This document shows positions 18,729-62,889 of a DNA stretch of 64,000 nt, piece by piece (position 1 is the stretch's first letter; the number at the start of each line of letters is the position of its first letter). The notes under the pieces were generated by a model that was not told the origin of the DNA, ran no database searches, and was given only the letters and a program-made list of their open reading frames with translations. A program made the translations under genes and the position numbers. Origin of the DNA: a virus (lineage: Duplodnaviria; Caudoviricetes); the IMG/VR virus record IMGVR_UViG_3300049009_000874, positions 96,001 through 160,000 of that record. One strand, 5' to 3'.

Positions 18729-19124
18729 ATGGAATTCAAGAGTTTTTTAGAGTACGACATATCGAACGCCATCAAGAACATAGCCAAAACGTTCCGCTAC
18801 GGAACCTACTGCGGTCCGAACAAGACCGGGGATATAGTGTCCAAGCCCTGCAACGTGCACGACAGCGGCGATCCCCTGAAACCGCCAAAGGACAAGCTTG
18901 ATTCGCTTTGCATGAGCCATGACGTCGACTACTGCAAGTGCGGCGACGAATGGACCGCCGGACTATTGGGAAACAAGGGATCGGAATGCAGCCGGGAGGC
19001 GGACAAGAAGTTTATCGGCGACATACGCCAGAACATTGATTCCATGAGCCCCAAGGAGAAATTCGTAGCGAACCTCATATTGGCTTATTTCAGGATGCAC
19101 GGAAACCTGCAGAAAATCATCTAA
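18729..19124 (+). CDS. phospholipase A2-like protein with putative head-targeting leader
   Basis: YGTYCGP Ca-loop, DKLDSLCMSHDVDY (HD dyad), EADKKF; leader MEFKSFLE. Confidence 0.8.
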   Translation: MEFKSFLEYDISNAIKNIAKTFRYGTYCGPNKTGDIVSKPCNVHDSGDPLKPPKDKLDSLCMSHDVDYCKCGDEWTAGLLGNKGSECSREADKKFIGDIRQNIDSMSPKEKFVANLILAYFRMHGNLQKII

Positions 19125-19152
19125 ACGCGGCGAATGGCTGCTATGTTAATTC

Positions 19153-19917
19153 ATGTCGATTCAAAACGATACATATGGCAGCCACCAGAAAGCCTACATA
19201 AAAATGGATCGGCACCTGGGCGATTCCCTGGTGTGCCTCAACCTCATCTACAGTTACCACGTCAAGAACAATGTCGGCGTGCGTGTCTTCGGCTCCGGCA
19301 CCGTCAAGGATCTTTTCGACCTGTTCGATTTCGGGGGGATGACCTTCGGGGGAGGCTGGTCCGATTCCGTTGAGCCAGAGATTTGCATCAACGAGTTCCT
19401 CTCGAGGGGGGCGAACCCGGAATCGACTTTTCTGAGGAATCGTCATATGCGGTTCGATAAAAAATTGGGGTTCGACCCGAAATGGATAGTTCTCCCCAAG
19501 TGCAGGATAAAACGATTCGGGTGCAACCACAACGTCTATTTCCAGTTCGACTCCAGGTCGCCGAGAAACCACGGGAAGAAACCGTTGACGCCGACCGAAT
19601 GTCGCATGATCCTGAGCCAGAGGTCCACGAGGAATCCGATAGCCATAGGCGGCAAGGACACAAGGATATACCTAGGAGGCTATATGTACCACCTCGGCGA
19701 CCTTTTCGGAATCTCGAAAAAACTCCTCGGCTGCAGGAAGTTCATAGGGGTTGACAGCGGCATGTCGCATTTGGCTGGCACTCTCGGGGTGAAGTCGGAA
19801 ATAATAAACATGCACAACATCAGATCTGTCGAGCGCGAACTCATGGATTTCTACCGGGAAATGTACCCTTCGACGGTCTCCTTCAGAAGGCAGGATCTGC
19901 TCTCCAAATTGATTTGA
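19153..19917 (+). CDS. GT9 (heptosyltransferase)-like glycosyltransferase
   Basis: HLGDSL and FIGVDSGMSHLAGTLG. Confidence 0.75.
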   Translation: MSIQNDTYGSHQKAYIKMDRHLGDSLVCLNLIYSYHVKNNVGVRVFGSGTVKDLFDLFDFGGMTFGGGWSDSVEPEICINEFLSRGANPESTFLRNRHMRFDKKLGFDPKWIVLPKCRIKRFGCNHNVYFQFDSRSPRNHGKKPLTPTECRMILSQRSTRNPIAIGGKDTRIYLGGYMYHLGDLFGISKKLLGCRKFIGVDSGMSHLAGTLGVKSEIINMHNIRSVERELMDFYREMYPSTVSFRRQDLLSKLI

Positions 19918-19942
19918 CACGTAATCGACCTTTTGCTACCAT
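19914..19942 (+). promoter_or_regulatory. sigma-70-type promoter
   Basis: TTGACA-N17-TACCAT. Confidence 0.5.
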
Positions 19943-19974
19943 TATTCGGAATTCAAACCCGAACGGAGCTGTTT

Positions 19975-20424
19975 ATGCATTGCATCGCTTTGATACTTTT
20001 TCTCGCCTCAAACCAAACTGCCGACGAGGTAGCCACGAAAAACTTCTGGATAAATTTCAACGACATAATACACAAGTTCAACAAGACGGTTAACTCCAAT
20101 CCCTCGAAAGCCTCGGTCGAGATAAAGGAGACAATCGCGAAGATACGCTGCCTCCCGACCAAAAACGTCGACATGCTTGTCTTGAAGTACTCAGAGAAAA
20201 GAATAACGCTAGCCGTGGAATACGCCGATTTCATCGACTCCCTGAAGATCCCGGAAGACATACAGTTCTACAAGACCGAGTTCCCGATCAAGAGCCAGAG
20301 GGACAAATTCAGGGACAAGCAGAAGTACTACGACAGACTCCAGGAAAGGTACAAGGACATGGATTCCGAACAGAAGGTGCTGATAGCCTACCTTGATGAA
20401 AAGTACAAGATGAAGAGCAACTGA
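19975..20424 (+). CDS. hypothetical exported protein
   Basis: GGAG RBS; short hydrophobic N-terminus MHCIALILFLAS. Confidence 0.65.
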   Translation: MHCIALILFLASNQTADEVATKNFWINFNDIIHKFNKTVNSNPSKASVEIKETIAKIRCLPTKNVDMLVLKYSEKRITLAVEYADFIDSLKIPEDIQFYKTEFPIKSQRDKFRDKQKYYDRLQERYKDMDSEQKVLIAYLDEKYKMKSN

Positions 20425-20430
20425 TCACGG

Positions 20431-21252
20431 TCACTGGTCAAGGAAGACGGGACTCCTTATAATGTTCTCCCCGGTTCCTCCGCTTGTTTTATCTCCGATG
20501 TGTTGCACCAGAGACTCGACCGGCGAGAATATCATGCAATCGTTCATCATCGACCATTCCTTGACTATCATGTCGTAGGCGTTCAGAAAGTCGGGGCAAC
20601 TTGGCTCGACCTGCGTGGAACTCACCGAGTTGGTCACCTCCTCCATGAAATTCCTTATGTCTCTCAGAACCGACTTGGGATAGAATACCGCCTGGGTGCC
20701 AGCCCACGTCATCTTGGGAACCTGGAAGTAGTTCTTCGAAGACCTGCATTTGTTGTGCGACAGCAGGCTGAATATGTATTTTTCGTAACCGTCGTTCTCG
20801 ATCTCGTTCAGGCACACCAGCATCTTGCGGAACCAGTCGTTCTGGAAAACCACGTCATCCTCGAACACCAGGCTGTTCTCGTAATCCGAAACGCTCAGGC
20901 ATTTGATGTAATTGTAGCTAGCCATGAACTTCCTCGGGAATAACTTGAGGTTCGACCAGTTCTCCCTGTCCCAGCAGATTATACGGAGGTTCTTGTGGTG
21001 CTTGTATTTTTCGAGGTATCCCGACTGGTCGGAGGACACTATCAGGTTGATAAGGTAGTTGTTTGGCATGCCGCCGAGAAGCATGCTCGCTAGCGTGCTG
21101 TGGACATATCCTTCCGGTCTGTCTACTGTCGAGACCACCACGTTCATCCTCAATTGGGACGACAAGGACTTTGGCGTGAAGTCGGCGTCAGCCAATCCTT
21201 CCGGAAGGCTGACCCTGACCTTGCAATCCATCCTCTTAGGTTTGATCAACAT
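20431..21252 (-). CDS. GT-A fold glycosyltransferase (GT25/GT54-like)
   Basis: TVDRP..Y..STL, LVFEDDV, YD, SLVQHIG. Confidence 0.75.
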   Translation of the reverse strand: MLIKPKRMDCKVRVSLPEGLADADFTPKSLSSQLRMNVVVSTVDRPEGYVHSTLASMLLGGMPNNYLINLIVSSDQSGYLEKYKHHKNLRIICWDRENWSNLKLFPRKFMASYNYIKCLSVSDYENSLVFEDDVVFQNDWFRKMLVCLNEIENDGYEKYIFSLLSHNKCRSSKNYFQVPKMTWAGTQAVFYPKSVLRDIRNFMEEVTNSVSSTQVEPSCPDFLNAYDMIVKEWSMMNDCMIFSPVESLVQHIGDKTSGGTGENIIRSPVFLDQ

Positions 21253-21269
21253 GCATATAATCTAGTCAG

Positions 21270-21656
21270 TTACTTGAGGTTTTTGAGCTTGTAAATGGTT
21301 TGGTAGGTCAAAGCCATAATCTCGTCGAGTATGTTGTGGAGGTGGGTGTCGTCTTGGTCGAGTCTTTTCCTTCCATCCTTGACGCTGTCGGCGAAACCTT
21401 CCATGTATTCCAGTATGTCCTTGGACTCGAGGATGCAAGAGTTATAGCCGGAAATGATGCCGTACTGACCCTGGTACGTCTCCACGAAGGTGTCCGCGAG
21501 ACCAAGGATCCCATCGTAGAAAGAGCCAAGAGCATTGTGCTCCGCGTAGCTCTTGGTCTGAAGGTGAGCCACGTGAGCCACGTTTCTGGCTTCGAAAAAC
21601 TTTGCCACAAGGTCTTTGACCTTGCTTCCCGACCTGAACTCGTTGATGCTTTTCAT
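21270..21656 (-). CDS. DUF5856 / ferritin(Dps)-like four-helix protein
   Basis: HLQTKSYAEHNALGSFYD...ADTFVETYQG...NILDEI...TIYKL. Confidence 0.8.
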   Translation of the reverse strand: MKSINEFRSGSKVKDLVAKFFEARNVAHVAHLQTKSYAEHNALGSFYDGILGLADTFVETYQGQYGIISGYNSCILESKDILEYMEGFADSVKDGRKRLDQDDTHLHNILDEIMALTYQTIYKLKNLK

Positions 21657-21721
21657 GTTGATTTTTCCTCGGTTTGGATTTAATGTATGTATTCGTCCAC
21701 GAATTTTTTTTAGGGGCAAAC

Positions 21722-22825
21722 ATGAACTGGATAGCGCCAATATTGACCGTTGTTGGCTTGGGCGTCGGATTTTGGGCTGTGGTGAGGTACATAGTCCTTT
21801 TCGACCTAAGGGTCGACAACAACACTTTCAGGACGATATACGAGTTGATCGAGAAGGAGGGGCAGTTCGTCATCGAGGAGGAGTTCTTCTCGGAGAAAAG
21901 GCATCCCGTGGTCTACAAGTCCATATGCTTCATGGAAGGAGTGCCGTGGTTCTACATCGCTCACTCCGAGAGGCTCTTGCAAGCCGGCTTCCAGGGCAAA
22001 GACCTTGTCACATCCATAACCTGCTTCAGGTGGAACCACTCGAAAATCAAGCGTTTCCTGTCCGAAAAACTGAAGTCCATGCAGCTCTCCACGTTCGGAG
22101 TCCCGGTCAGGGTCGCTTCGCCATGGCAGACAGACAAGATCGGCTCGATAAAGACCGCCGACAATCCAGTCGTCGACGAGTCTCTGTGGCTTGATTTCTG
22201 CGAGGAGGTCGGGGAGGTGGCAAGGGGAGTATTGCCGAAGACCGGGGCGATACTCTACGGCGACCCCGGCAACGGAAAGACTTCTCTGGTCAAGTATCTC
22301 GCGGTGAAATACCAGATGCCCATAACGATAATAACGTTCGTGCCGGAATTCACGAACATGGACATCATGTTCATGTTCTCGCAGATAGGAAACAACTGCA
22401 TCGTGCTTCTGGAGGATTTCGACAACTACTTCGACAAGAGAAGGTGCATAATAGGCGAGAGCGGGCAGGGCGGCAACAACATGGGCATAAAATTCACATT
22501 CGATTCTATACTCAATTGCCTGGACGGGGTCTACAACAACTATGAGGGCGTCGTCTTCATCATGACCGCCAACGACATAGGCAAGATAGACGACTCGCTC
22601 AAGAACAGACCCAGCAGATTCAAGTACGTGAGGAACTTCTCCAACCCGTCGCCAGTCGTGAGGGAGAATCTCATAGGGGAATGGTCTCGGCATTTCGGCG
22701 GGTTGAACCTGGACCAGATCATGAGGGTGAGGGAATGCAAGACCAACGGCATGACGGTCAACGAAGCCAAGTCGAAGATCAATTTCGAGGCGGTCCAAGA
22801 CCGTGAGGTCACGAGTGAGACCTAG
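21722..22825 (+). CDS. membrane-anchored AAA+ ATPase (BCS1-like)
   Basis: N-terminal TM helix, YGDPGNGKTS, VLLEDFD, LNCLDG, MTAN, RPSRF. Confidence 0.88.
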   Translation: MNWIAPILTVVGLGVGFWAVVRYIVLFDLRVDNNTFRTIYELIEKEGQFVIEEEFFSEKRHPVVYKSICFMEGVPWFYIAHSERLLQAGFQGKDLVTSITCFRWNHSKIKRFLSEKLKSMQLSTFGVPVRVASPWQTDKIGSIKTADNPVVDESLWLDFCEEVGEVARGVLPKTGAILYGDPGNGKTSLVKYLAVKYQMPITIITFVPEFTNMDIMFMFSQIGNNCIVLLEDFDNYFDKRRCIIGESGQGGNNMGIKFTFDSILNCLDGVYNNYEGVVFIMTANDIGKIDDSLKNRPSRFKYVRNFSNPSPVVRENLIGEWSRHFGGLNLDQIMRVRECKTNGMTVNEAKSKINFEAVQDREVTSET

Positions 22826-24621
22826 CGGATCGTCCTTTCCTTTCGGCGGACGAAACTCTCGTACGTGTACATGTTCTCGTCAGGGCTAGCGCTCTTGCTT
22901 GTTTTAGCCGGCGCTTGACGCTTCTGTTCTTTCCCGGACTTGTCGCCGGAAGCTGCACCAGCGACCGCCCCTCCTATAGCCCCGCCGGTGGCGGCTGAGT
23001 GAACGATGATTTTGGTGTCCAATTCGATGGGCTTGTCAGGATAGTATCCGATGTCTTTGAAATATTTTATTTGATCGAATTTCTCGATTTCTGCCGTTAG
23101 TCCTTGGTTTTTGAGTTCGGCGGATAGATCCGCGTATGCCTTGTCCATCATTTCCTTGACCGACAGTTGGGTGCCGTCGACATCGACAGGACTCATCGTC
23201 GCGTGAAACTTTATAAAGAGCGTGTCTGGTCCGAGCGTCTTGTCCACCAGCTTGTTGAGAGAGACGCTGGTGAATGTGTCCTTGAACACCAATTGGTCGC
23301 TTATCTTGTCGAGCGTTGCCTGCGATACGTCAGAATGAGAGAAAACCGCAGCCGGATCGGTTTTTCCGACCCAATCATCAGGAACTCCCTCTTGGTCGTG
23401 AGTGTGAGTTTTAGAATAAGCGAACGTCGAGGCTGGAACCTCGTCTCCTACTTCGCCACGCCAAGGTTTGTCTCCGGTGTTGCTGTAGTGGTTGTCTCCA
23501 TGAAAATGGTAATTTCCGTCCTCGTCCTTGACGTAATCCATCTTGAAGTTCTTGTGAATCCAATCCATGTCCTCCTGGGGGGCGACTTCTTTAACGGTGT
23601 TCGCAGCCATCGCGTCGACGCCCTTCCCTATGCCATATCCTATCAGAGAGCCCACGCCCATGAGGAACAGGACTTTTCCTATCTTTAATTTGTTCTCGTT
23701 TGCGAACTTGGACATGGACCCGAATGATTTGCTGATCAGGTTCTTGGTGTTCACCGTGTAATTGGTCGCCTTCCCGGCTACCGAACCGAGAGCCTTTCCG
23801 AATCTCTCCCCGGACCTTTTCAGTCCTCCCTCTTGAGCCCATTTCTTCGCCTGGCTCGCCTTTTTGCCTATGTACTCTTCACCCGATGACACCTTGTTCC
23901 CTAGCCAGTTCCCAGCCTGCTTCACCTTGTCTCCGAAATAACCCTCTTGGATGTCTCGCATGTCACTGTATGAAGAGAAGTCCGTCCAAGCGAGCTGCGG
24001 CGTTGGCGTCGCTGCGTTCTGGGTCGCCCCAGTCTGGTTCGCGCCCTTCATCGCGTTCTGGACCATCCCGGCGCCCTTCTGAGCCATTTCGACGCCCTTG
24101 TCGTAAACGTTGCCGGCGATCTTGTTGACTGGCTTCCTCACGAAGTACATGAGCGCAGCCATCGGCACGGCTGCGGGTCCGCCAACCATGCCAGCCAGAA
24201 GGATGGATGTAGCCAGGGGAATCGATATCCCGAGCTTTGTTGCGTAATCAGCGGCAGCCTTCCTAGCCTTTTCCATGTGCGGCGTGACTTTGCCGCTGTA
24301 TTTCTCCAGAGTGTCTTTCAAGAGGTTGTCGTTGTTTTTGTTTCTGGTATCGGAGTAACCTTGTTGCGCCCCGGAAACAGCGGACTTCCCGAAGTCCATG
24401 ATGCCCTTGCCGATCCCAGAAGCGACGGAGCCGATCCCAGAAGCGACGGACTTGGCTTTTTTCCACCAGTCGCCTATGGCTTCGTTGACCACCTCGTCGT
24501 TTCCGAATTTCGAGTATACCTCGAACAACAGCTCATCGCTCAATCCCACGCCTCTGCGCTCAAGATATGAAATGACATTGTTCCTTTTGATTCCGTTGAT
24601 ATGTTCCATGAATGTATTCAT
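22822..24621 (-). CDS. large putative virion/internal protein (paralog of 33092-34795)
   Basis: N-terminus FGNDEVVNEAIGDW shared with 33092; two Gly/Ala hydrophobic segments. Confidence 0.8.
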   Translation of the reverse strand: MNTFMEHINGIKRNNVISYLERRGVGLSDELLFEVYSKFGNDEVVNEAIGDWWKKAKSVASGIGSVASGIGKGIMDFGKSAVSGAQQGYSDTRNKNNDNLLKDTLEKYSGKVTPHMEKARKAAADYATKLGISIPLATSILLAGMVGGPAAVPMAALMYFVRKPVNKIAGNVYDKGVEMAQKGAGMVQNAMKGANQTGATQNAATPTPQLAWTDFSSYSDMRDIQEGYFGDKVKQAGNWLGNKVSSGEEYIGKKASQAKKWAQEGGLKRSGERFGKALGSVAGKATNYTVNTKNLISKSFGSMSKFANENKLKIGKVLFLMGVGSLIGYGIGKGVDAMAANTVKEVAPQEDMDWIHKNFKMDYVKDEDGNYHFHGDNHYSNTGDKPWRGEVGDEVPASTFAYSKTHTHDQEGVPDDWVGKTDPAAVFSHSDVSQATLDKISDQLVFKDTFTSVSLNKLVDKTLGPDTLFIKFHATMSPVDVDGTQLSVKEMMDKAYADLSAELKNQGLTAEIEKFDQIKYFKDIGYYPDKPIELDTKIIVHSAATGGAIGGAVAGAASGDKSGKEQKRQAPAKTSKSASPDENMYTYESFVRRKERTIR

Positions 24622-24648: not shown

Positions 24649-24656
24649 TATCTATG
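24649..24656 (-). promoter_or_regulatory. putative late promoter box
   Basis: CATAGATA ~28 nt upstream of 24621 start. Confidence 0.5.
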
Positions 24657-26324: not shown

Positions 26325-26327
26325 GGT

Positions 26328-29841: not shown

Positions 29842-29871
29842 CAAGAGGTTCCAGATCCAAAAAACATACAT

Positions 29872-30591
29872 ATGTTCATGGATTTCAAGCAATTCCTGTA
29901 TACCGAGTCCTCGAAGCCAGCCATGTTGGGCAAATACCGCATCACGTACATAGACTCCAATAAATTCAGGAAGAAATCACTTCTGAACGTCGAGTTCTGC
30001 ACCGCCGCGGTCCACGACGATTTCCCCAGACACATAAAGAAGGACGAGATATGGATTGACGACAGCATCAAGCCGAAGGAGATACCAACCATCCTCAAGG
30101 GTTTGTCTGTCAGGCTGTCGGAAATCGAGAATGGCGGGAAGAACCCGTACGAGAAGGGAATCGCCGCGGAGAAAAAAGAAAGGAACGAACACAGGGAAAA
30201 GCTGAAGAAGAAGAAGCACATGACCATAAAGGACTACAGCGGCGAAATCGAAGTGTATCTGGTCAGCGGCAAGGCTGTCAGGGACAACTACAAGACGGAT
30301 TTCTCGCAGGGGGGTCACGGCTACGTCTACGACTGGATACCGAAGAACGAGATATGGATAGAGGACGAGGAGAAGGACGAGATTGCTCCGATCCTTGCCC
30401 ACGAGTACATCGAGATGGTCCTCATGAAGGAGAGCGGCTGGAAGTATCCCAAAGCCCACGAGATGGCTTCCGACATAGAGCAGCAACTCAGGAAGAAAAA
30501 CCTGACGATGAAGGGGATCGACAAGGTTGTCAAGAACATATCGATACTTGTGCCGGAAGTAAACAAGCCAAGATCCAAGAGAAAAAGCTAA
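29872..30591 (+). CDS. hypothetical protein with putative head-targeting leader
   Basis: MDFKQFLYTE leader; duplicated I.K.EIWI; AHEYIE...AHE metal-site-like motif. Confidence 0.75.
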   Translation: MFMDFKQFLYTESSKPAMLGKYRITYIDSNKFRKKSLLNVEFCTAAVHDDFPRHIKKDEIWIDDSIKPKEIPTILKGLSVRLSEIENGGKNPYEKGIAAEKKERNEHREKLKKKKHMTIKDYSGEIEVYLVSGKAVRDNYKTDFSQGGHGYVYDWIPKNEIWIEDEEKDEIAPILAHEYIEMVLMKESGWKYPKAHEMASDIEQQLRKKNLTMKGIDKVVKNISILVPEVNKPRSKRKS

Positions 30592-32986: not shown

Positions 32987-33091
32987 TTTGTGTTTGATTT
33001 GCTTTGTTTTTACTTCTTTTTTCATTCATTGAAGAGAATATTTGAAATAAAACATCGTAAATAGATTTGTAATATTTTACGAGGATTTATC

Positions 33092-34795
33092 ATGCGCGCT
33101 TATTCTTTTCATGAATTTTTTAATCACAAAAAACGATCTGACGTTTTTGCATTTCTGGATTCTCGCCACGGGACGATCGACGAATCTGTTCTCCAAGAGC
33201 TTTATTTCAATTTCGGCAACGATGATGTCGTGAATGAAGCTTGGGGAGATTGGCTGAGCAAAGCCAAAGGGATGGCGCAAAACGTGGCGGCTGGAGCGGC
33301 GAACGTGGCGGCTGGAGCGGTCAAAGGCGCGAAAGAGTTCGGAAAAGGGTTCGTGCAAGGGTCGCAGCAAGGCTACAAAGACACAAGGACCGATGCCGGC
33401 GTGAAGAAAATCGAAAATATCGCAGCCAGCATCGGCGAGCTCAGCAAGAAATTCACCCAGAAATACAAGATCGACCCAGTAACGGCAGCCATCATGATTG
33501 GCTCCGGCGCGACTGGCGGCTTGGGAACAATACCTATGCTCGCGATGGCTGTAGGATTGAGAAAAGGCAGCGCTTGGCTTGCCGGGAAAGGAATGGACGC
33601 GGCTTGGAAAAAAGCGACCGGTAAAACGCCGGCAGAACTGGACCAGATGTGGCAGTCGAAAATCAGCGACACCAAGGCGCCAGCAACAGCAGCCCCAGCG
33701 GCGATGGCGAGACCGGCAGCACCGCAACCAGCCCCAGCGGCGATGGCGAGACCGGCAGCACCGCAACCAGCCCCAGCGGCGATGGCGAGACCGGCAGCCC
33801 CCGACTCCGACCAGTTCCATTACGAGACGTTCAATAGATCGAAAACCTCGTTTGTCGCTTTCTTGGAAAACAAGGACGCCGGTTTGTACCAGAACATAAT
33901 CGACGAGGGGATGTGGGACAGCGCGAAAGGATTTTTCACCGGCGCCCTGAACAAAGGCGCAGACGTAGCCAGAGGATACGCAAAAGACATCGAGGATCAA
34001 GGATTCGCGAGGGCGACCGGGTCGCTGGTAGGCAAAGGCGCGGGCAAAGCCGCGGGAACTTTTTCGAACTCGGTTATTGTCTTCGCGAAAAGCCTGCAAA
34101 ACGCTGGATCGTTCATGGTCAACAACCCAGTCAAGACGGGAACAATGCTGATGGCTATCGCAGCCGGATCCATGATCGGGAGCTACGGTACTCAAGCAAT
34201 CAACAGTTTCATCGACAAGCCGTCCGCAGACCAAATCCAGGACTTGACCGCCGCCGCAAAACAAGCTGGCGTCCCAGACGGCGAAATACAATCAATGCAT
34301 CGAGATTCCGGATATTCCGGTAGCGGCGGCGATTTCGACACGAAAGACACCTCATATTCCGGTGCTGGCGGCGATTTCGGCGATGCTCCGGGTGCAGAAA
34401 AATTCTTACCATCAAAAGACATAAAAGGTTGGAATAGTGATCTTGGTGATTTCACAATAAAAGAACTCCCGAACGGACAACAAGTAGTGCAAACAACTGA
34501 TGGAAATCTCTATACACACACAAGGGGTAATGTTTCTGGTCAAGAAATTTATCAAAAAGTAGATGATGTAACTGGGAAAGCAATTGGAAAACCCACTTAT
34601 CACCCGATACAGGACAATGGTCCAACTGGTGCAGATTTCGTTCCGAAAGACCCGAACTACAAAGGTTTGTATTCTGCGACTCCTAAGTTAAACGATCTGG
34701 ACGGAACAACCATGCCACGGCTTGATGGGCAAACCTTTGATGGAAAAACTTGGAGTGGCGGAAAGATGTCTATACCAACCCATAGAGGTGGATAG
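33092..34795 (+). CDS. large putative virion/internal protein (paralog of 22822-24621)
   Basis: Leader MRAYSFHEFF, FGNDDVVNEAWGDW, hydrophobic segments, Ala/Pro repeat. Confidence 0.8.
   Translation: MRAYSFHEFFNHKKRSDVFAFLDSRHGTIDESVLQELYFNFGNDDVVNEAWGDWLSKAKGMAQNVAAGAANVAAGAVKGAKEFGKGFVQGSQQGYKDTRTDAGVKKIENIAASIGELSKKFTQKYKIDPVTAAIMIGSGATGGLGTIPMLAMAVGLRKGSAWLAGKGMDAAWKKATGKTPAELDQMWQSKISDTKAPATAAPAAMARPAAPQPAPAAMARPAAPQPAPAAMARPAAPDSDQFHYETFNRSKTSFVAFLENKDAGLYQNIIDEGMWDSAKGFFTGALNKGADVARGYAKDIEDQGFARATGSLVGKGAGKAAGTFSNSVIVFAKSLQNAGSFMVNNPVKTGTMLMAIAAGSMIGSYGTQAINSFIDKPSADQIQDLTAAAKQAGVPDGEIQSMHRDSGYSGSGGDFDTKDTSYSGAGGDFGDAPGAEKFLPSKDIKGWNSDLGDFTIKELPNGQQVVQTTDGNLYTHTRGNVSGQEIYQKVDDVTGKAIGKPTYHPIQDNGPTGADFVPKDPNYKGLYSATPKLNDLDGTTMPRLDGQTFDGKTWSGGKMSIPTHRGG
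33690..33798. repeat. 39-bp tandem repeat, ~2.8 copies (APAAMARPAAPQP)
   Basis: CAGCCCCAGCGGCGATGGCGAGACCGGCAGCACCGCAAC units. Confidence 0.95.
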
Positions 34796-42555: not shown

Positions 42556-42639
42556 CTACTGGTTATATAGCCAAACATGCGCGCTAATTGAAGAATAAAA
42601 AACCGCCACGGCGACTAAATAACACAAAGGGAGAATGTC

Positions 42640-50607: not shown

Positions 50608-51348
50608 TCAGCTGTTCCTCTCTATGTTCCCTAATCTGGTCAGGTGCTTGTCCCTCGACTTGTGCAGCGGGTCCATCATGTCCGTGAACTCCTTGTCGGC
50701 GTGAACCTTCGAAAGGTCTTGCTTCTGCCTGAAAGTCCTCACGTGTGGCATGAAGTCCTCTCCCCTTATCCTGCCCGTCCTGTCCATGATTATCAAGGTG
50801 ACCAGCAGCTTAGGCTTGATCTCGTCCCTTATCTTGCCTTCCCCGTCGAATATCGAGCCCCAGAGCTTCCTTGGGAATCCTCCGTCCTGCTGCAGCGACA
50901 TGTGGTTGTCTATGACGAAAAAAAGCACCTCCCTGTCCTCCCGGGGCAATGAGTCGTATATGTCTTTCAATCCGCCGCTGAGCTTCGATATCTGCGGCAT
51001 GTAGTGACCGGGGTTCTCGTGCCCGTGGGCGGTTATCCTTCCCCCGTCGACCTTCGTGGCGGTAGCCTTGCCGATGTCGTGGAACCAGGCAGCCAGCTTC
51101 AGTATCTTCATCTCCCTCTTGTCGTAACTCGTTCCTAAGTTCGAGAATATAGATCCAGGCTTGGAAGCCTCGCGCCTGATGAACTCTATCGCCATCGGAA
51201 GCCTGCTTCGAACCATCCTAGTGTGCGTGAACACGTCGCCCTCGGCGTGGTGCTTGTCGCTCTGGACCACGGGCTTCAGTATGTCGCCGAGCGACGACTC
51301 GGAACTCAAGACCACAGACAGATAATCCCTGAATGTTTTGTTTTCCAT
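50608..51348 (-). CDS. HD-domain phosphohydrolase with putative head-targeting leader
   Basis: HHAEGDVFTHT, AWFHDIGK, HGHE, NHM, MDRTGR; leader MENKTFRDYL. Confidence 0.85.
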   Translation of the reverse strand: MENKTFRDYLSVVLSSESSLGDILKPVVQSDKHHAEGDVFTHTRMVRSRLPMAIEFIRREASKPGSIFSNLGTSYDKREMKILKLAAWFHDIGKATATKVDGGRITAHGHENPGHYMPQISKLSGGLKDIYDSLPREDREVLFFVIDNHMSLQQDGGFPRKLWGSIFDGEGKIRDEIKPKLLVTLIIMDRTGRIRGEDFMPHVRTFRQKQDLSKVHADKEFTDMMDPLHKSRDKHLTRLGNIERNS

Positions 51349-51362: not shown

Positions 51363-52064
51363 TTAAGCCTTCTCGACTTCACCGTCGTCCCATTCTTCCT
51401 CGCCGCTTAGGTGCGGAGGCAGCGGCAACCCCCTCTTGGCGTACTTGATCCTCTCGACCGACCTGTCGTCCTTCTCGTTCCTTTTCTGGGCGAGACCGGC
51501 GAACTCTGGCATCAGCGAGGAGATCCTTTCCACAAGATCGGATTTCATGTACACGTTGTAGACCTTCGTGTAGCCGAGCGGCTTCATTATGTCCCTGTAG
51601 AAGACGTCGTACATCTTCTGGAGGCTGTCCGTGGACCCGAGGAACGTTATGCCTTGCGGGCTTTCCATGTCCACGAGCGACTTGAGGGCTCCGAACAGGC
51701 GGGTGTACACCGCGAACGGGTTGGTGCTGTCCTTCGGTCTCAGCGACCCGTTCACCGAAAGCGAAACCTCGTATATCTTTATGCCCATTGGGATATATGG
51801 TCTCTCTATCTTCTTCAGGACCATGTAGTCCACCTTCTGCCTCGTGAAGCCGCTCAGCATCTTTATCAGCTCGTCCACCGAGAGCATCCTCATCTTGACC
51901 TTGTATTCGTATTTCCGCGCTTCCTCGCTTGGCGCCGGCATGCTGAAATTGAGCATGTAAGTGCCTTCCTCGTCCTGCTCGAGATGCTCCGGCGGCGCAG
52001 CCGCGTACCTTTCAAGAGCGCCCTCTTCCAGCATCCTCAGGCACATGTCGTAAAATGAAATCAT
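51363..52064 (-). CDS. hypothetical protein with putative head-targeting leader
   Basis: MISFYDMCLRMLEEG; GGAGG RBS; CATAGATA upstream. Confidence 0.75.
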   Translation of the reverse strand: MISFYDMCLRMLEEGALERYAAAPPEHLEQDEEGTYMLNFSMPAPSEEARKYEYKVKMRMLSVDELIKMLSGFTRQKVDYMVLKKIERPYIPMGIKIYEVSLSVNGSLRPKDSTNPFAVYTRLFGALKSLVDMESPQGITFLGSTDSLQKMYDVFYRDIMKPLGYTKVYNVYMKSDLVERISSLMPEFAGLAQKRNEKDDRSVERIKYAKRGLPLPPHLSGEEEWDDGEVEKA

Positions 52065-52174
52065 ACTGTTCCTCCATATGTTATCTATGGGAAATCCAAA
52101 TGAAAAACAAAAAAACCCATTGAAGACGAAAGGGAAATCTGGTTAAATCGGAACATCTCGAAAGGAAATCGAAA

Positions 52175-54581: not shown

Positions 54582-55673
54582 ATGCTGAAACGTTTTAATT
54601 GCGCGGAAAAGGGGAAGAAAGCCTTCACCCTCATCGAACTCTTGGTCGTCATAGCTATCATCGCGATCCTCATCGGGCTACTGCTGCCCGCGGTGCAGAA
54701 GGTGCGAGAGGCAGCAGCCAGGATCAGCTGCGGCAACAACCTGAAACAACTTGGCATGGCCATGATGAATTTCGAATCCACCTACAACTGCCTTCCCACG
54801 TCGGGCGAAGGGATGTCCCCTGGCACGGCAACGGCGCCAGGAGGAACTGTCTTTGATGGCATTTCCTTCTTTACCGCCGTTCTTCCTTTTCTCGAACAAG
54901 AAGCCGCAGCCAAACAGGTGAATAACAATGTGCAGCATTATTCTGCCGACGCCAATCAGGCGGCTTATAAAACCGTGATCAAATCCTTGGTTTGCCCGGG
55001 CAACCCAACCGCTTTGGCGTCTGGTGTTGACGCTGGAGGTTACGGAACAACCGATTACATGCCAATTGCTTATTCGGATATCGACCCAACTACCGGAGCC
55101 CGTGCCAGCACAAGCCTTGTTTACAAGAAGGCTGGCATGCTCACCGTGACTGGAACGTTCCCGGCAGGACAAAAAGCTTCCACCATTTCTGATGCAGGGA
55201 ATGCAGTTCCCAAATTGAAGAACGGCAGAAGAATCACCGGGATCACCGATGGAGGCTCCAACACCATTGGGTTGTTTGAAGACGTGGGTCGCGGCAACGC
55301 CGGCTGGGGCACTGAAGTATCAACCAAATACGGGTCACGCAATATCGCTCGCTGGGCAGAGCCAGACGGCGGCAATGGCGTTTCCGGTCCCGCTTTCGAC
55401 GACGCGGGCGCGCCAAATAGCGGAGCTGCGACCTCTGTGGTCATTTCGAAGTGGATCAACCAGAATTCCTACCCGACTGGCGGAACCACCACTTGCCCTT
55501 GGTCGATCAACAACTGCGGTCCGAACGACGAGCCGTTCTCGTTCCACACCGGCGTGGTCGGCGCGGTGTTCGGCGACGGGCACGTGGCTTTCATCTCTGA
55601 CAAAGTCGGAGTCGTGACGCTCAAGGCGTTGGTCACGGCGGACGCCGGCGACCAGATCGGAACTGACTATTGA
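54582..55673 (+). CDS. DUF1559 prepilin-type N-terminal cleavage/methylation protein (planctomycete type)
   Basis: [40 protein letters not shown]; C-terminal H-x9-DG ([14 protein letters not shown]). Confidence 0.95.
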
Positions 55674-56698: not shown

Positions 56699-56778
56699 AA
56701 CAACTCCTTTTGCTGGTGAAAAAACATCAAAGACTTCATTTTCCGCGCTATTCCATAACGCTCAAAGATATATATGGC

Positions 56779-58641
56779 ATGAACTTCAAAGAATTTATAG
56801 TGCAGGATTGGGTCGAGGATTTGCTGGAATCCATGGGAGACCAGGATTACTACATGGACTTCAACTCCCACATCGGCGGACTTCTGGCGAGCGACACTCC
56901 GCTACGGCTGGTCGAGTTCGCCATCAGCGAAGCCAAGAAGGAACAGAAGGTTGCGAACTTCTCCAGCAGGCAGTGGGACCACCATAGGGAGAAGATAAAG
57001 AAACTGTTCAGACCGAAGGTCGACAAGCACGGCAGGATAGAGAACCCCCACAAGGGCATAAACCTCGTCTCTCCAGGCGACAACAACCCCAAGACGCAGA
57101 AGGGATACAACGGGAGCGTCCCGAACCCTCACACCGGCGAGATGAGACCCATGAAGAACGCGGTCATGCACCTTCTCCCGGCTGGATTCTCCGGATGCAA
57201 CACCTGCTCGGGGCATACAGCCCAATGCGCCGCGGCTTGCCTCGACGTCGCGGGGAACCCGGCGTTCATGGGGGTCAAGACCGCCGGCAGGGCGAAGCGA
57301 ACGTTCATGTTCGCCTACAGCAAGAACGACGCCATGAAGAAGCTAGCCAAGGAAATAGAGAAACACCAGTCGGAAGCCCACAAGTTCAACCTCAACTTCG
57401 GGATGCGTCTCAACGGCACTTCGGACATACCTTGGGAGAGCGAACGCTACAAGTTCGAGTTCGACAGGGAGAACCCGCCGCCGGAATCCGAGAGACCGAC
57501 CAACTGCCCCAAGGAAGAGAGGAAGAAAAGCATATTCTGCCACTTCCCCGAAACCCAATTCTACGACTACACAAAACTCCTGCCGAGGGCTATGGCGCAC
57601 GCCAATGGCAAGATGCCGCCCAACTACCACCTCACCTTCAGCTACTCGGAGAACACCAAGCAGGAGGACATGGAGAAGCTCCTGGACGCCGGCGGCAACG
57701 TGGCAATGGTCTTCGCCTTCGCCGAGAAGAACTACGACCCCGAGAAGGCTGAGAAAGCGGAGAAGAGCCGCGGGAAGAAGACTCCTTTCTCGCCGAACCC
57801 GAGGGGCAGGGAGGACGCCAGGGAGAGCGGTCCCTACAAGATACCCAAGGTTTGGCGGGGCGAGAACGGCAAGACATACAAGATCGTCAGCGGCGACACG
57901 CATGACCTCCGCTTCATCGACGACATGAACAAGGACGGGGGCGACGGGGTCATCGTCGGTCTGGCTGCGAAGGGCGACGCCAAGTTCGTGCGACCAATAC
58001 CGGGCAAGCAGGTCTTCGTGGTGCAGCCGGACGACCCTCACCTGAGGGACGAGCCCGAGAACCAGCCGTGGATGAGGTCGGCTACCAAGGCTATGGACCA
58101 GAGGCTGCGGAACCACAGGAAATCGATCGACAAAAACGAGGAAGCCGCCAACAAGATCATCGACAAGGCGAACTCGATGCCAGAAGGAGAGGAGAAGAGG
58201 GAACTGCTGGACAGAGCCCAGAGGATGAAAGACGGGGTCATCAGCTTCACCGGTCCAGACGCGCAGAGGAAGAGGTCCAACATGATCTACTCCCTGGCGA
58301 AGGAGCCGGACAGCCTTTCCCTGCCGCACCTGCCCCACAACCCGGAAGGTCTGTCCCCGCTAGAATTATCCAGGAAGGCGTTCAAGGACAAGGCTCTCAA
58401 GGACATGAACTCAAGGATAGAGAAGGAGATCAAGGGGGCGGAGAAGATGTCCGGCTCCAGGTGGTCCCAGCAGCAGAGGGACGATTACATAGCATCCAAG
58501 AGGCTCGAGTACGCGGACGACTACCACGGGCTCAGCACCTTCAAGCAGAAGGAGGGTCTGCCGCACTGGACAGCCTCCGACAAGCCGCCAGAAAACCAGA
58601 CATTCAAGATGAACCTTCCTACAAGAACCATAAGGAGTTAA
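56779..58641 (+). CDS. GP88-family protein (Cys-rich core) with N- and C-terminal extensions
   Basis: C..C......C...CL..AG, RLNGTSDI.WE, FYDYTK, NYHLTFSYSE, NVA.VF, GD.HDLRF.D, IVGL.AKG; leader MNFKEFI. Confidence 0.82.
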   Translation: MNFKEFIVQDWVEDLLESMGDQDYYMDFNSHIGGLLASDTPLRLVEFAISEAKKEQKVANFSSRQWDHHREKIKKLFRPKVDKHGRIENPHKGINLVSPGDNNPKTQKGYNGSVPNPHTGEMRPMKNAVMHLLPAGFSGCNTCSGHTAQCAAACLDVAGNPAFMGVKTAGRAKRTFMFAYSKNDAMKKLAKEIEKHQSEAHKFNLNFGMRLNGTSDIPWESERYKFEFDRENPPPESERPTNCPKEERKKSIFCHFPETQFYDYTKLLPRAMAHANGKMPPNYHLTFSYSENTKQEDMEKLLDAGGNVAMVFAFAEKNYDPEKAEKAEKSRGKKTPFSPNPRGREDARESGPYKIPKVWRGENGKTYKIVSGDTHDLRFIDDMNKDGGDGVIVGLAAKGDAKFVRPIPGKQVFVVQPDDPHLRDEPENQPWMRSATKAMDQRLRNHRKSIDKNEEAANKIIDKANSMPEGEEKRELLDRAQRMKDGVISFTGPDAQRKRSNMIYSLAKEPDSLSLPHLPHNPEGLSPLELSRKAFKDKALKDMNSRIEKEIKGAEKMSGSRWSQQQRDDYIASKRLEYADDYHGLSTFKQKEGLPHWTASDKPPENQTFKMNLPTRTIRS

Positions 58642-59603: not shown

Positions 59604-59659
59604 CAGTGACAATGCAGATATGGACTAACTGATTGACATTAACATTTAGAAGGATGAAC

Positions 59660-60316
59660 ATGAGTTACTTGTTAGCCAATATTCCGCCGATAGAGGTTTT
59701 CGTGAGAAAAGAGTTCTTGTACGATTTCCAAAAAGACAAAAACAATGAACTTCTTGGCAAGGGAGAATATGAGTCTGCCCATTGGATAACCACAAAATCA
59801 ATTCCGAATCAGGCTTTGTATTTCGAATCATTCATGCACGACTATGGCGCTTTGTTCGACAAACTGCCAATTCACGCCTTTGTTTGGAAAACAGATATTC
59901 CCGAAAAGACATACCCTCTGGATTGGCTGCAGCTGTGGGACTGTTTTTCTTATAATATATCTGTCATCAAAAAACAACGATTGAGAAACGCCCGATGCGA
60001 GGTGTTGATGAAAGACAAGTCCAGAGCGCCGGGATACTACATGTTCACCATAGATTCGTGTTCCTCAAACCCGGATGAAGTTGACGTGTCTTGGTCAGAA
60101 ACGCCGAACGAACACAAGTCATTTAACATAATCAAATTGGACAACGGTCAATTCGCGGCTCAACCCAACAACAGGATATTGTGGAAACACCAGTCGCAAA
60201 CACCGTCGACCGATTTGAAAGTCCCATATTTTAAATTTTCAACCAAAACGTGGATATGTGAAAACCAAGACAGGTGGTCGGCATCCGAAGCCACAAAATT
60301 TAATTATGAATCGTAG
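59660..60316 (+). CDS. conserved phage hypothetical protein
   Basis: MSYLLANIPP..VFVRKEFL, LQLWDCFSY, EHKS, GQFAAQPNNR, a pattern I recall from aquatic phages. Confidence 0.75.
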   Translation: MSYLLANIPPIEVFVRKEFLYDFQKDKNNELLGKGEYESAHWITTKSIPNQALYFESFMHDYGALFDKLPIHAFVWKTDIPEKTYPLDWLQLWDCFSYNISVIKKQRLRNARCEVLMKDKSRAPGYYMFTIDSCSSNPDEVDVSWSETPNEHKSFNIIKLDNGQFAAQPNNRILWKHQSQTPSTDLKVPYFKFSTKTWICENQDRWSASEATKFNYES

Positions 60317-60367
60317 AAAATACCTAGTTTCAAACCTGGACATCCTTTGTTTGGAGATAGACGTGTT

Positions 60368-60748
60368 ATGTTTTGTATCGAAACCTACTTGAAAAAAACA
60401 GAAGATCGAGGGATTGGTGTTTTTTCGAAAAACCTTGTTGAAAAAGGAACTGTTATTTGGCAGTTCAAGGAAGGATTTGATTTGAAAGTCCATAAGGACA
60501 AACTGCTTGATTTAAATGGCGTACAAAAAGAATTTGTCGACAAACACTTTTACAGGCATGATGACTACTACTACTCGTCTTGTGATCATTCGATTTTTCA
60601 AAATCATAGCAACACACCCAATTCGGTCGATTTGGACACAGATAAAATGGTAGCAGCCAGAGATATATTGCCCGATGAAGAAATACTTGTGAACTACAGT
60701 GATTTCGATGAAGATTTCAAATCATATGAGAACACGCTTTTCAATTAG
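60368..60748 (+). CDS. SET domain protein (lysine methyltransferase-like)
   Basis: GIGVF, FQNHSNTPN, AARDI..DEEILVNY. Confidence 0.9.
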   Translation: MFCIETYLKKTEDRGIGVFSKNLVEKGTVIWQFKEGFDLKVHKDKLLDLNGVQKEFVDKHFYRHDDYYYSSCDHSIFQNHSNTPNSVDLDTDKMVAARDILPDEEILVNYSDFDEDFKSYENTLFN

Positions 60749-60794
60749 ATGTGGCTCATCGTTGAATGGTCAAAACCTGAAGACACGGGTCCGT

Positions 60795-61247
60795 TTAGGT
60801 CTTGACCATGTACACGGAATCCGAGCCGTGATGGTCTACGGTCTTCTGGCTTTGGAAACCGAATTTCTTCCAGAAACCCTCGGATACGAGACTGGACACC
60901 AGAACCTTCGGATTCGACTTTATTCTCAAGACCGCATCAGCCAAAGCAATCCCGTGACCCTTCCCGCGATGCATCTTCTCAACGCAAAGATCGTGGATGT
61001 AGTGGCAGTCTGGATCTTCGACCTTCCTGTAATTCTCGTTTATGGGGAAATATTCCCACAAGGTGTAGGGGAAAGAAATGACGTAACCCACCACTTCCTT
61101 GTCGATCTCGCACACGAAACACCCTTCCGGGTATCCCAGTATCTTGGATCGAAAGGATTCGCTTCCCTCGTAGTGGTCGGCGGGATAGCTGCTTGTTCCG
61201 ATCTGGTCGATGAAATCGAAATCTTCTGGTTTTGCGTGTCTTATCAT
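60795..61247 (-). CDS. GNAT family N-acetyltransferase
   Basis: IRHAKPED, VVGY, YIHDLCV...RGKGHG, FWKKFGF. Confidence 0.9.
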   Translation of the reverse strand: MIRHAKPEDFDFIDQIGTSSYPADHYEGSESFRSKILGYPEGCFVCEIDKEVVGYVISFPYTLWEYFPINENYRKVEDPDCHYIHDLCVEKMHRGKGHGIALADAVLRIKSNPKVLVSSLVSEGFWKKFGFQSQKTVDHHGSDSVYMVKT

Positions 61248-61360
61248 GAATTCATCATAGTAATGTGGTCAGAAAACCCTACTTTTGTCCACAAAAATTT
61301 TTAAAAATTAATATATATGAAGACGACAAAAAATTTATAAAAAAAAACTAAGGAGTTGTC

Positions 61361-62221
61361 ATGGCAGATTTTAATGTAGATTTAAGTCCAAATTTGGTGA
61401 ACTTAGGAACTGAAGGAAGCTTGGACACTAGCGTTCAAAACGGCAACTCTCTTCAGAGAAAGTTGACTGGTGTAATGGTTGAATTTTGTGGTAATAGAAA
61501 AATAGTTGGTCGCATTGACGATGGAGGACAGTTCAACGAAACTATTGAGAGAGTAAAAGACTATGCAGGAATTACCAAGACCATTGGTGATAACTACATA
61601 TTCGTCAATAACAACTTTGTTGACTACAATGAAGGGGGAACCAGTACTTCCGATGAAGCAAACAATTTGATTGCCATGTTTGATGAATCTGGAATTGTCT
61701 ACAAAAAATTCACAGACATTGATGGCAGAACATTTTCATCTCTTGACAACATGGATAAGCTCATTATTCCAGAACTAGATGAAGGCGATCTTCTTCCATC
61801 ATTGACCTCTGATGCTAGAAATGCAATCACCGATTTTGTCGATGGTGGCGGAACTCTCATCATGTTTGAACCAGATAGTGGCGATGTATTAAATGTCTTG
61901 AATGAGCTATTCGGGTGGGAGCTTGAAACAAATGGAGTGTCTGAGCCTATTGATATTACTGAGGCTGGAGCCATTCTTTTCCCAGATGAAAGTTCTGACC
62001 TTCCTGATTTGAGTGCTACTGATTCACTTGACACAACTACCCTTCCAGTTAATTCTGTAAGCATCTATACTGGCGATGGATCTAATCAAACAGTTGTAGC
62101 CAAGATGCCATATGGTGATGGCTTTGTTTATGTTCTTGGTTGGGATTGGTATAACGCACAGCCTGTTGGTGACGAAGATGGCGGCTGGAATCACCTTCTG
62201 AGATCTATTTTAAATTCTTAA
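61361..62221 (+). CDS. acidic hypothetical protein, possible GATase-like C-terminal domain
   Basis: LIIPE...FVDGGGTLIMF...YGDGFVYVLGWDW; AAGGAG RBS. Confidence 0.7.
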   Translation: MADFNVDLSPNLVNLGTEGSLDTSVQNGNSLQRKLTGVMVEFCGNRKIVGRIDDGGQFNETIERVKDYAGITKTIGDNYIFVNNNFVDYNEGGTSTSDEANNLIAMFDESGIVYKKFTDIDGRTFSSLDNMDKLIIPELDEGDLLPSLTSDARNAITDFVDGGGTLIMFEPDSGDVLNVLNELFGWELETNGVSEPIDITEAGAILFPDESSDLPDLSATDSLDTTTLPVNSVSIYTGDGSNQTVVAKMPYGDGFVYVLGWDWYNAQPVGDEDGGWNHLLRSILNS

Positions 62222-62236
62222 TTCAAGGAGAAAACA

Positions 62237-62413
62237 ATGTTTACACTAGATGTACCAACCAGCAAGGTTGATCAATTTGATGTTCTTTTAGACGATATCA
62301 ATGTCACTTACAGGGTATCTGGCAAAAATGAAGACGGATCTATCACAAAACTCAGCTTCAAGAAACAAGCCTTGCTTGAAAAGGCTACTGAAGAACTGAA
62401 AAAACTTTCTTAG
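62237..62413 (+). CDS. small hypothetical protein (58 aa, not in ORF track)
   Basis: AAGGAG RBS; MFTLDVPTSKVDQF...EELKKLS; followed by terminator. Confidence 0.65.
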   Translation: MFTLDVPTSKVDQFDVLLDDINVTYRVSGKNEDGSITKLSFKKQALLEKATEELKKLS

Positions 62414-62422
62414 TCAATTATC

Positions 62423-62459
62423 AAAAGTCTTGAATGTCTATTAGCATTCAAGACTTTTT
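62423..62459. terminator. intrinsic terminator
   Basis: AAAAGTCTTGAATG...CATTCAAGACTTTT. Confidence 0.8.
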
Positions 62460-62461
62460 CA

Positions 62462-62530
62462 TTATTTCACCATATAAACCGCATTCAAACCATGGTAATC
62501 AAAATCTTCTGGTTTTGCGTGTCTAATCAT
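62462..62530 (-). pseudogene. internally deleted remnant of a GNAT gene
   Basis: Encodes MIRHAKPEDFDYHGLNAVYMVK, matching the first 11 aa and the last ~11 aa of 60795-61247. Confidence 0.85.
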
Positions 62531-62562
62531 AAATTTATTATAGCTTGTTTATATATATTGAT

Positions 62563-62889
62563 ATGCAAAACTTTAAAGAATGGCTAAACAATCGTGATCC
62601 AGAAATGTTGAATGAAAGCAAAAAACCATTTAAAAACTTTGATAAAAAAAAGAACCATCCAGAAGGTGGGCTTAAACCATCTTATGCCAAAAAATTAGGC
62701 ATTCGTGCGGGTATTGAAACTAAGCGTGAAGCCGAAAAAAAAGGTGGCGTTCATAAAATGTCCGATAAAACAAAGGCAAGAAGAAAATCATTCTGTGCCA
62801 GAATGTGTAAAGCAGGAACAGCCAAAAGCAGAAATGATCCCAAAAGCAAACAAAGAGCAGCTTTAAGGGTTTGGAAATGTAGATGCTAA
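62563..62889 (+). CDS. DUF6321-like basic phage protein with putative head-targeting leader
   Basis: RRKSFCARM...DP.S....ALR.W.C; leader MQNFKEWLNNRDPEMLNES. Confidence 0.75.
   Translation: MQNFKEWLNNRDPEMLNESKKPFKNFDKKKNHPEGGLKPSYAKKLGIRAGIETKREAEKKGGVHKMSDKTKARRKSFCARMCKAGTAKSRNDPKSKQRAALRVWKCRC

Follow-up and report, generated by a model that had tools for sequence, protein, structure and literature searches.

The window analyzed here is a 64,000 nt stretch (bases 96001–160000) of the 189,229-bp linear IMG/VR contig IMGVR_UViG_3300049009_000874 (Caudoviricetes). It carries 11 genes whose mostly unrelated products begin with the same short N-terminal peptide, hereafter the tag, which resembles the capsid-targeting sequence (CTS) of bacteriophage T4. 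The source of the contig, which covers ~39% of a genome according to CheckV, is an uncultivated huge freshwater phage. When 5 kb of the window were compared with GenBank phages by megablast, no match was obtained. The closest relative found, G001, is a 165-kb fragment whose DnaE is 69% identical to that of the contig. As a syntenic relative we used LR756511.1, a 595-kb chromosome labeled "uncultured phage". The split DnaE gene of the contig shows 49% identity to the DnaE of LR756511.1, and 71 of 223 crude gene calls of the contig match this chromosome by tblastn, with a median identity of 41% and in long syntenic runs.

The tagged N-termini share the motif M-x(1-4)-[FY]-x-[EDQ..]-[WFY]-[LIMF], usually followed by hydrophobic-x-Glu. 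The original prediction, made from the sequence of the window, had ascribed such a tag to 12 open reading frames (ORFs). All 12 quoted N-termini were recovered, with coordinates and strands agreeing, and ten of them fit the motif, namely those starting at 18729, 29878, 33092, 42640, 44904, 45835, 56779 and 62563 on the plus strand and at 51348 and 52064 on the minus strand. The ORF starting at 24621 (-) is a degenerate paralogue of 33092, and the remaining one is untagged. The latter (21270–21656, -) encodes a Dps/ferritin-like DUF5856 protein (PF19174, E = 8e-22) that fails to fit the motif; phrog_858 aligns its residues 5–127 to profile positions 7–128, so its MKSINEF start lies inside the conserved domain, and the supposed example of a tagged iron-binding protein is wrong. 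On the other hand, the glycosyltransferases, the ClpX-like ATPase and the methyltransferase-type genes of the window all start without the tag, as had been predicted for its metabolic genes.

The first tagged gene (18729–19124, +) encodes a candidate cargo protein of 131 amino acids (aa) that starts with MEFKSFLEYD, contains the motifs YGTYCGP and C-M-x-HD-x-DYC, and has a TATATA box at 18691–18696. A word-index search retrieved only three other homologue clusters, at 76–81% identity, and these keep M-[EK]-F-[KR]-[SE]-F-[LF]-E-Y-D. Pfam PLA2 families were matched at E-values of 0.045–0.07, i.e., below threshold, the nearest Atlas clusters carry PF08398 (score, 0.91), and the AlphaFold2 (AF2) model is poor (pLDDT 60). 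Based on the motifs, the sub-threshold matches and the Atlas neighbors, the PLA2-like assignment is plausible. The degenerate tag MNTFMEHI opens a 599-aa protein (22822–24621, -; TAGATA box at 24649–24654) with a 47-residue leader ending in VVNE/A, where the slash marks the putative cleavage site. Its paralogue of 567 aa (33092–34795, +; TAAATA box at 33058–33063) starts with MRAYSFHEFF and has a 49-residue leader ending in VVNE/A, followed by W-x-x-KAKG. Both match one G001 gene starting with MNTFSEFF. An orphan of 237 aa (29878–30591, +; isoelectric point (pI), 9.1) starts with MDFKQFLYTE/S, has a TACATA box at 29867–29872, 5 nt before the ATG, and gave no Pfam or PHROG match.

Three further tagged genes form an operon. 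The first one (42640–44907, +) follows a TAAATA box at 42616–42621 and a Shine-Dalgarno sequence, and encodes a 755-aa orphan starting with MNFRDYI, whose first hydrophobic-x-Glu is LTE-21; the search of related loci retrieved no relatives of this protein, and no Pfam or PHROG match was obtained. The second gene (44904–45815, +; 303 aa) overlaps it by ATGA and starts with MKFKEWFVVNE/L, while the third (45835–46101, +) encodes an 88-aa protein with a pI of 9.7 that starts with MRRFAQYLEE and has a second site, IVDE/G, followed by W-x-x-KAKG. The products of 24621 (-), 33092 (+) and 45835 (+) share, within residues ~20–65, the sequence [VI]-V-[ND]-E/[AG]-x-x-[DK]-W-x-x-KAKG, which may be a further processing module or the conserved N-terminus of the mature proteins. 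On the opposite strand, a 246-aa HD-superfamily protein starting with MENKTFRDYL...SSE/SSLGD (50608–51348, -) lies downstream of, and is probably co-transcribed with, a gene for a 233-aa protein (51363–52064, -; TAGATA box at 52082–52087 plus GGAGG). The latter starts with MISFYDMCLRMLEE, i.e., with the MISFYDM[WC]L variant of the tag used by a nine-gene paralogous array outside the window, and BLAST links it to all nine array members (E-values of 1e-7 to 7e-11). Together with 52064 and the more distant 44904, the array constitutes an 11-member paralogue family.

The two remaining tagged genes lie near the end of the window. The 620-aa product of 56779–58641 (+; TATATA box at 56769–56774, 4 nt before the ATG) starts with MNFKEFIVQD, then LLE-17, and matches PF17338 (GP88) over residues 116–337 with an E-value of 5.5e-33, the only firm Pfam match among the named cargo. 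The lipase, phosphohydrolase and GP88 identities put forward in the original prediction therefore differ in standing: GP88 is firm, while PLA2 and HD, although plausible, do not reach the Pfam thresholds. The last gene (62563–62889, +; TATATA box 5–7 nt before the ATG) encodes a 108-aa protein with a pI of 10.4 that starts with MQNFKEWLNNRDPEMLNE/S and is 84% identical to its G001 orthologue. It is located in a segment (60001–64000) where the GC content falls to 39.7%, compared with 46–55% in the rest of the window. The 88-aa and 108-aa proteins, which are small and very basic, are similar in both respects to the internal proteins of T4. The pI lies between 7.6 and 10.4 for ten of the 11 tagged proteins of the window. 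Pfam and PHROG searches of 29 tagged proteins left most of them orphans, although the contig also encodes a tagged ankyrin-repeat protein.

For an unbiased count, the pattern [FY].[EDQ][FWY][ILMF] within residues 2–10 was taken from the T4 CTS alone, before the contig was viewed. This pattern is found in 13 of 216 predicted N-termini (6%) and in 0.2% of internal 9-residue windows, a 30-fold enrichment that agrees with the predicted confinement of the motif to N-termini. A six-frame scan followed by curation of starts gave ~33 tagged genes on the whole contig, the 11 of the window included. In a residue profile of 23 curated tags anchored on the first aromatic residue, this residue is F in 23 of 23 and position +3 is aromatic in 23 of 23 (W12, Y6, F5), both by construction of the curated set; +1 is rich in K/R, +2 is E/Q/D in 19 tags, and +4 is L/I/M/F in 22 (L15, I3, M2, F2).

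Such a pattern could in principle arise by chance or by simple paralogy of an N-terminal domain, since one family accounts for 11 of the 33 tagged proteins and another two are paired. However, when the first 25 residues were trimmed, BLAST still separated the 33 proteins into 22 groups. The 11 proteins of the window fall into nine groups (44904 and 52064 join the array family; 24621 and 33092 form a pair), so the bearers are, as claimed earlier, mostly unrelated. The motif is also not confined to this genome: a codon pattern for MKTFxEWL matched 116 IMG/VR stretches, compared with seven for a scrambled-codon control, and most matches coincide with the start of an ORF, in many cases immediately downstream of a CTAGATAGGGC-type box. 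Together with the 30-fold enrichment, these results effectively refute chance or paralogy, the probability of which is close to negligible. A looser DNA pattern, M-x-x-[FY]-x-[EDQH]-[FWY..]-h, gave counts of 2–3x control in Syn9, S-PM2, RaK2, KVP40 and HTVC008M; it did not discriminate even for the present genome, and is therefore uninformative on cultured relatives.

The tag is generally followed by a glutamate in a preferred register. A Glu occurs at +8 in nine tags, at +7 in four and at +5 in three (16 of 23); among those with Glu at +8, I/L/V/M is found three residues before it in eight, and Tyr in the ninth. In general, the residue three before Glu is mostly I/L/V/M/Y/F, and Asn often precedes the Glu of the putative cleavage site (x-Asn-Glu). 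The suggestion that an [ILV]-x-E site usually follows the shared N-terminus was supported: hydrophobic-x-Glu is present at residues 5–22 in 20 of 24 tagged and in 74 of 166 untagged N-termini (p = 4e-4), and in register in 14 of 24 tags versus 17% after internal aromatic pairs. The resulting leaders are 8–21 residues long, except for the 47–49 residues of the paralogues 24621 and 33092. Charged or polar residues break up the tag every 1–3 positions, as read from the sequences; a Sec/Tat or lipoprotein signal peptide was rejected because there is no positively charged n-region with an uninterrupted hydrophobic core of 7–15 residues behind it.

Most of the tagged genes share an upstream element as well. 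A TA.ATA box (TAGATA, TATATA, TACATA or TAAATA) is found within 45 nt upstream of 17 of the 24 non-array tagged genes and of 22 of 167 untagged genes (Fisher p = 9e-9), whereas 2% would be expected from its density in the genome. Eight box-led units of the window, such as the operon 42640-44904-45835 and the pair 52064-51348, include all 11 tagged genes, which points to their co-regulation through the box. The spacing between box and ATG is bimodal, either 4–7 nt without a Shine-Dalgarno sequence or 13–33 nt, usually with one, as a -10-type promoter element would give. Boxes of the former kind precede three genes in the window (29867–29872, 56769–56774 and 62550–62557) and five elsewhere (genome positions 3742, 66004, 72352, 86867 and 173638), which suggests that these eight tagged genes have leaderless late mRNAs. 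The T4 late promoter is TATAAATA, and its likeness to the TANATA box points to a late promoter here too. The same kind of box is found in LR756511.1 upstream of the capsid gene and the adjoining tagged genes, and genes behind such promoters would be expressed late, together with the head genes.

The eight close-set boxes also raise the question of whether what is conserved is a signal for expression, located in the first codons of late mRNAs that often lack a leader, instead of a protein signal. However, tag and box are separable: the array genes, which have strong AAAGGAGA ribosome-binding sites and no box, are still tagged, while the 22 box-led genes mentioned above are not. This speaks against a translation signal. 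Moreover, synonymous codons vary freely. At the hydrophobic +4 position, each of the six Leu codons is found, as are codons for Met, Ile and Phe, and both Phe, both Tyr and both Glu codons are in use within tags. Eight orthologue pairs of the contig and G001, with 26–84% overall identity, keep the residue classes of the tag; the exchanges, for example W to F, M to L and V to I, preserve the chemistry, not the bases. For example, MIRFSEWMKMRE corresponds to MITFSNFLKVKE, and MKFKEWFVVNE of 44904 to MRFKNWIIINE/L in a G001 homologue at only 26% overall identity; the G001 orthologue of 33092 (44% identity) keeps F..FF and has IILE/A in place of VVNE/A at the same site. Because codons vary synonymously and orthologues keep residue classes, selection, as read from these alignments, acts on the peptide and not on the nucleotides, and an expression signal is very improbable.

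The peptide under selection closely matches the CTS of T4, MKTYQEFIAE (bioRxiv 10.1101/2021.01.19.427310), which is present on IPII and IPIII (also IPI and Alt) and is cut off by the prohead protease gp21 (Mullaney and Black 1996; PMC9026906, PMC3012670). In NC_000866, two ORFs of 100 and 193 aa, which fit ipII and ipIII, begin with an exact copy of MKTYQEFIAE, in agreement with the choice of this sequence as the model in the original prediction. According to the suppressor analysis by Mullaney and Black, targeting depends mainly on residues 4 and 7, and processing on residues 8 and 10 (PMC9026906). The positions conserved in the present tags are these determinants: 4 and 7 for targeting, 8 and Glu for processing. 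As in T4, a leader of ~10 residues directly after Met is carried by otherwise unrelated, often basic proteins, with an aromatic residue at position 4, another three residues later, I/L next, an acidic residue between the aromatic ones, and a closing Glu with a hydrophobic residue three before it. Unlike in T4, the closing Glu is usually located two residues further (F-x-E-W-L-x-h-x-E, where h is hydrophobic), Trp dominates at the second aromatic position, Asn often precedes Glu, and some leaders reach ~47–49 residues. The systems also differ in scale, since ~33 bearers per 189 kb here and ~30–40 in the 595-kb relative compare with two exact and a few looser ones in T4, and in cargo, which reaches 755 aa here and 1076 aa in LR756511.1 and comprises families of enzymes that are not known from the T4 head.

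The HD protein offers the clearest view of where the tag ends. An exhaustive HMMER search among 1.84 billion proteins retrieved 144 representative relatives. Of the 68 best-ranking ones, 44 open with the tag; its final Glu immediately precedes the conserved block SSLRD..VPQ.P.HHPEGDV, where the domain begins. Residues H34, H42, H90-D91, H110 and H149 are invariant across 42 relatives. The AF2 model has a pLDDT of 95.7, with lower values (78–81) for residues 1–20; Foldseek gave only weak matches of this model to HD phosphodiesterases and the tRNA-processing enzyme 3wfr (E-values of 0.03–0.1), and the Atlas HD score is 0.97. In three metagenomic relatives, the tagged HD domain is joined either to a CCA-adding enzyme or to an N-terminal region that resembles P-loop kinases (GxxGxGKS), which suggests a role in RNA or tRNA end repair. 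Most of the apparently untagged representatives are truncated gene calls, since the tag is present on longer proteins of their clusters. For this reason, the tag is considered ancestral to the HD family, nearly every member of which is tagged, judging from the sequences; the comparison with untagged homologues, in which the tag was to appear as an add-on, gave no evidence for the proposal that it was grafted onto enzymes.

The machinery expected for such a tag was identified in relatives. In LR756511.1, a one-strand head module begins with a gp20-like portal protein (28% identical to T4 gp20), followed by a 616-aa protein, a 222-aa Peptidase_S77 protease (PF03420, E = 7e-28; 35% identical to T4 gp21), a 310-aa scaffold-like coiled-coil protein and a gp23-type capsid protein (PF07068, E = 5e-87). 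The order protease-scaffold-capsid equals 21-22-23 of T4, i.e., the clade has the T4-type arrangement. Far from the head module, at 242621–242989 (-), Peptidase_S77 gave another match of lower significance (E = 3.5e-9) in a 304-aa frame, perhaps a protease paralogue that has diverged, of the kind reported from SPN3US (PMC5694885). LR756511.1 has ~30–40 tagged ORFs with the consensus MKTF.EWL...E, close to MKTYQEFIAE of T4. Just downstream of its capsid gene, two tagged proteins are encoded, a NADAR protein of 165 aa (MLTWTEFLEARQ) and one of 1076 aa (MEFREWFRSAE). The protease and the capsid protein start with ..MLLNE and ..KFLNE/A, respectively, and these sequences resemble the VVNE, MLNE and LQNE ends of the window tags. 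An S77 protease was also detected above the Pfam cut-off in all five large tag-bearing IMG/VR contigs tested (298–572 kb).

Based on these results, the tags likely belong to a greatly expanded T4-type system of capsid targeting and prohead-protease processing of cargo. In such a system, an amphipathic leader of 10–20 residues, with an aromatic residue at about position 4, another one three residues later and then a hydrophobic one, would bind the scaffolding core of the assembling prohead; a gp21-family (S77) protease would cut after Glu, usually in hydrophobic-x-Glu and often in x-Asn-Glu; and the mature protein would stay in the DNA-filled head, probably leaving it with the DNA at the next infection. 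We infer core binding, cleavage, retention in the virion and injection from the sequence features, while delivery at infection is suggested purely by analogy. The protein set packaged is very likely readable from sequence, and its injection is probable.

Several observations weigh against this interpretation. The contig and G001 carry no protease, scaffold, capsid, portal or terminase gene (the contig gave no match to Pfam Peptidase_S77, Gp23 or Terminase_6C, nor to the LR756511.1 head proteins by tblastn), and the protease link comes from a relative with only ~41% protein identity. The earlier claim of a protease-removed T4-type leader passes every sequence test run, but its protease has been seen only in relatives. 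Given that the contig is ~39% complete and has no head-gene matches, the head module would simply lie outside the present piece. The in-register hydrophobic-x-Glu is missing from ten of 24 tags, and the SSE site of the HD protein has no hydrophobic residue three before Glu. The tags MEFKSFLEYD (18729) and MNFKEFIVQD (56779) have Asp where T4 has Glu10; Asp at this position of the T4 CTS blocks cutting but not loading (PMC9026906), so by analogy these two proteins may be loaded and either cut elsewhere or left uncut. Furthermore, ~33 tagged proteins in 39% of a genome are far above the handful of T4, and a tblastn search of GenBank phages with the HD protein matched only the uncultured huge phage LR756500.1, and no cultured phage.

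A last point against it is that T4 gp61.1 (54 aa; NC_000866, 18966–19130, -), encoded in an early/middle gene region, starts with MKTFKEFIKE. We know of no report of gp61.1 as a head protein, and the motif alone does not prove head loading, because this protein carries it without a known head role. This case would also fit a peptide that is a docking tag for another partner, such as a chaperone, a factor in tail or baseplate assembly, or the ClpX-type unfoldase of the phage, for which it would act as a degron or an adaptor signal. The window encodes a ClpX-like AAA+ ATPase (114–1418), and N-terminal recognition signals exist for ClpX. However, the conserved positions of the tag coincide with those mapped for T4 capsid targeting, every large tag-bearing contig tested encodes the S77 protease, Glu falls at the domain boundary in the HD family, and T4 has this tag on internal proteins. 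Docking to such a partner is, therefore, decidedly unlikely.

Alternatively, the tag may indeed serve for loading into the prohead, with most bearers being assembly or core components (scaffold-like, degraded, or part of an inner body) and not injected effectors. The scaffold of LR756511.1 starts with MNKFVEVL, T4 gp22, gp67, gp68, gp21 and gp24 also have N-terminal hydrophobic-x-x-hydrophobic...Glu leaders, and most tagged proteins are orphans without an enzyme signature; inner bodies of large size, like those of phiKZ and SPN3US (PMC5694885), may also be required in huge heads. Against this, enzyme-like cargo is encoded here (HD hydrolase, PLA2-like and GP88 proteins) as well as in LR756511.1, where the tagged products include the above-mentioned NADAR enzyme next to the capsid gene (521964–522461, -), a PolyA_pol-type (CCA-adding) nucleotidyltransferase (580680–582206, +) and a C39-like cysteine peptidase (429897–430484, +). 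In addition, as is the case for the T-even ip loci, the tagged genes lie scattered and differ from one relative to another. It is unlikely, though not far-fetched, that core components make up most of the bearers.

Packaging of a tagged protein set has partial counterparts in other systems. Encapsulin cargo-loading peptides are likewise short and portable, and send diverse enzymes into an HK97-fold shell, but they are usually C-terminal, bind the shell, are not proteolysed, and involve neither DNA nor delivery to another cell. The giant phages phiKZ, 201phi2-1 and SPN3US have a gp21-related, Glu-specific prohead protease (gp175/gp245 there), as do, for the present tag, the relatives of the contig. 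The heads of these phages contain dozens of internal proteins, of which some are injected, and their propeptides are thought to be targeting signals (PMC5694885, PMC7411985). However, those propeptides are mostly longer than 100 residues and are cut at A/S/G-x-E (PMC5694885), while the present leaders, which are not of this long type, have 8–21 (47–49) residues and hydrophobic-x-E. Apart from 15 identical residues shared by gp53 and gp54 of SPN3US, no short consensus tag has been described there (PMC5694885). In phage P1, the N-terminal 30 residues of DarB suffice to send this large anti-defense protein or a reporter into the capsid (PMC9024508). By description, the likeness lies in an N-terminal peptide that loads a protein into the capsid for delivery; the DarB signal is described for one protein in PMC9024508, whereas the present tag is a consensus across many. 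No report of CTS-type tags in huge or metagenomic phages was found in a literature search that did not include most subscription journals.

If the tag works as that of T4, it provides a ready list of candidate anti-defense or takeover proteins, most of them orphans, and marks the diversifying 11-member family as probable head cargo. Virion proteomics needs culture, so the cargo of uncultivated huge phages is out of its reach, whereas a working tag would make this cargo predictable from the sequence. The tagged enzymes, in particular the HD protein with its CCA-adding or P-loop kinase fusions and NADAR beside the capsid gene of LR756511.1, hint at pre-packaged counter-measures. NADAR-type enzymes of T4-like phages are reported to act as counter-defenses against DarTG1 (PMC11257639). 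It is conceivable, although the balance tips slightly against it, that a clade of huge freshwater phages and many uncultured T4-related phages pre-load their heads with dozens of CTS-addressed proteins, among them the HD hydrolase, the CCA-adding enzyme (in the relative), NADAR, a papain-like peptidase, the PLA2-like and ankyrin-repeat proteins, and the fast-evolving 11-member family. In that case, an injected first-strike anti-defense repertoire could be listed for any such metagenomic genome from its N-termini. Since the determinants match those of T4, the idea is cheaply testable in T4 itself, e.g., with the tags MKFKEWFVVNE and MKTFNEWLELKE.

Two further genes of the window were noted. A 496-aa RCC1-repeat propeller protein with a STIG1-like cysteine module at its C-terminus is encoded at 35583–37073 (+). 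The 363-aa product of 54582–55673 (+) has a prepilin-type N-terminal methylation motif and a DUF1559 domain (PF07596, E = 9e-40). The DUF1559 family is greatly expanded in Planctomycetota and Verrucomicrobiota, and this gene may be a hint to the host or a host-derived gene.

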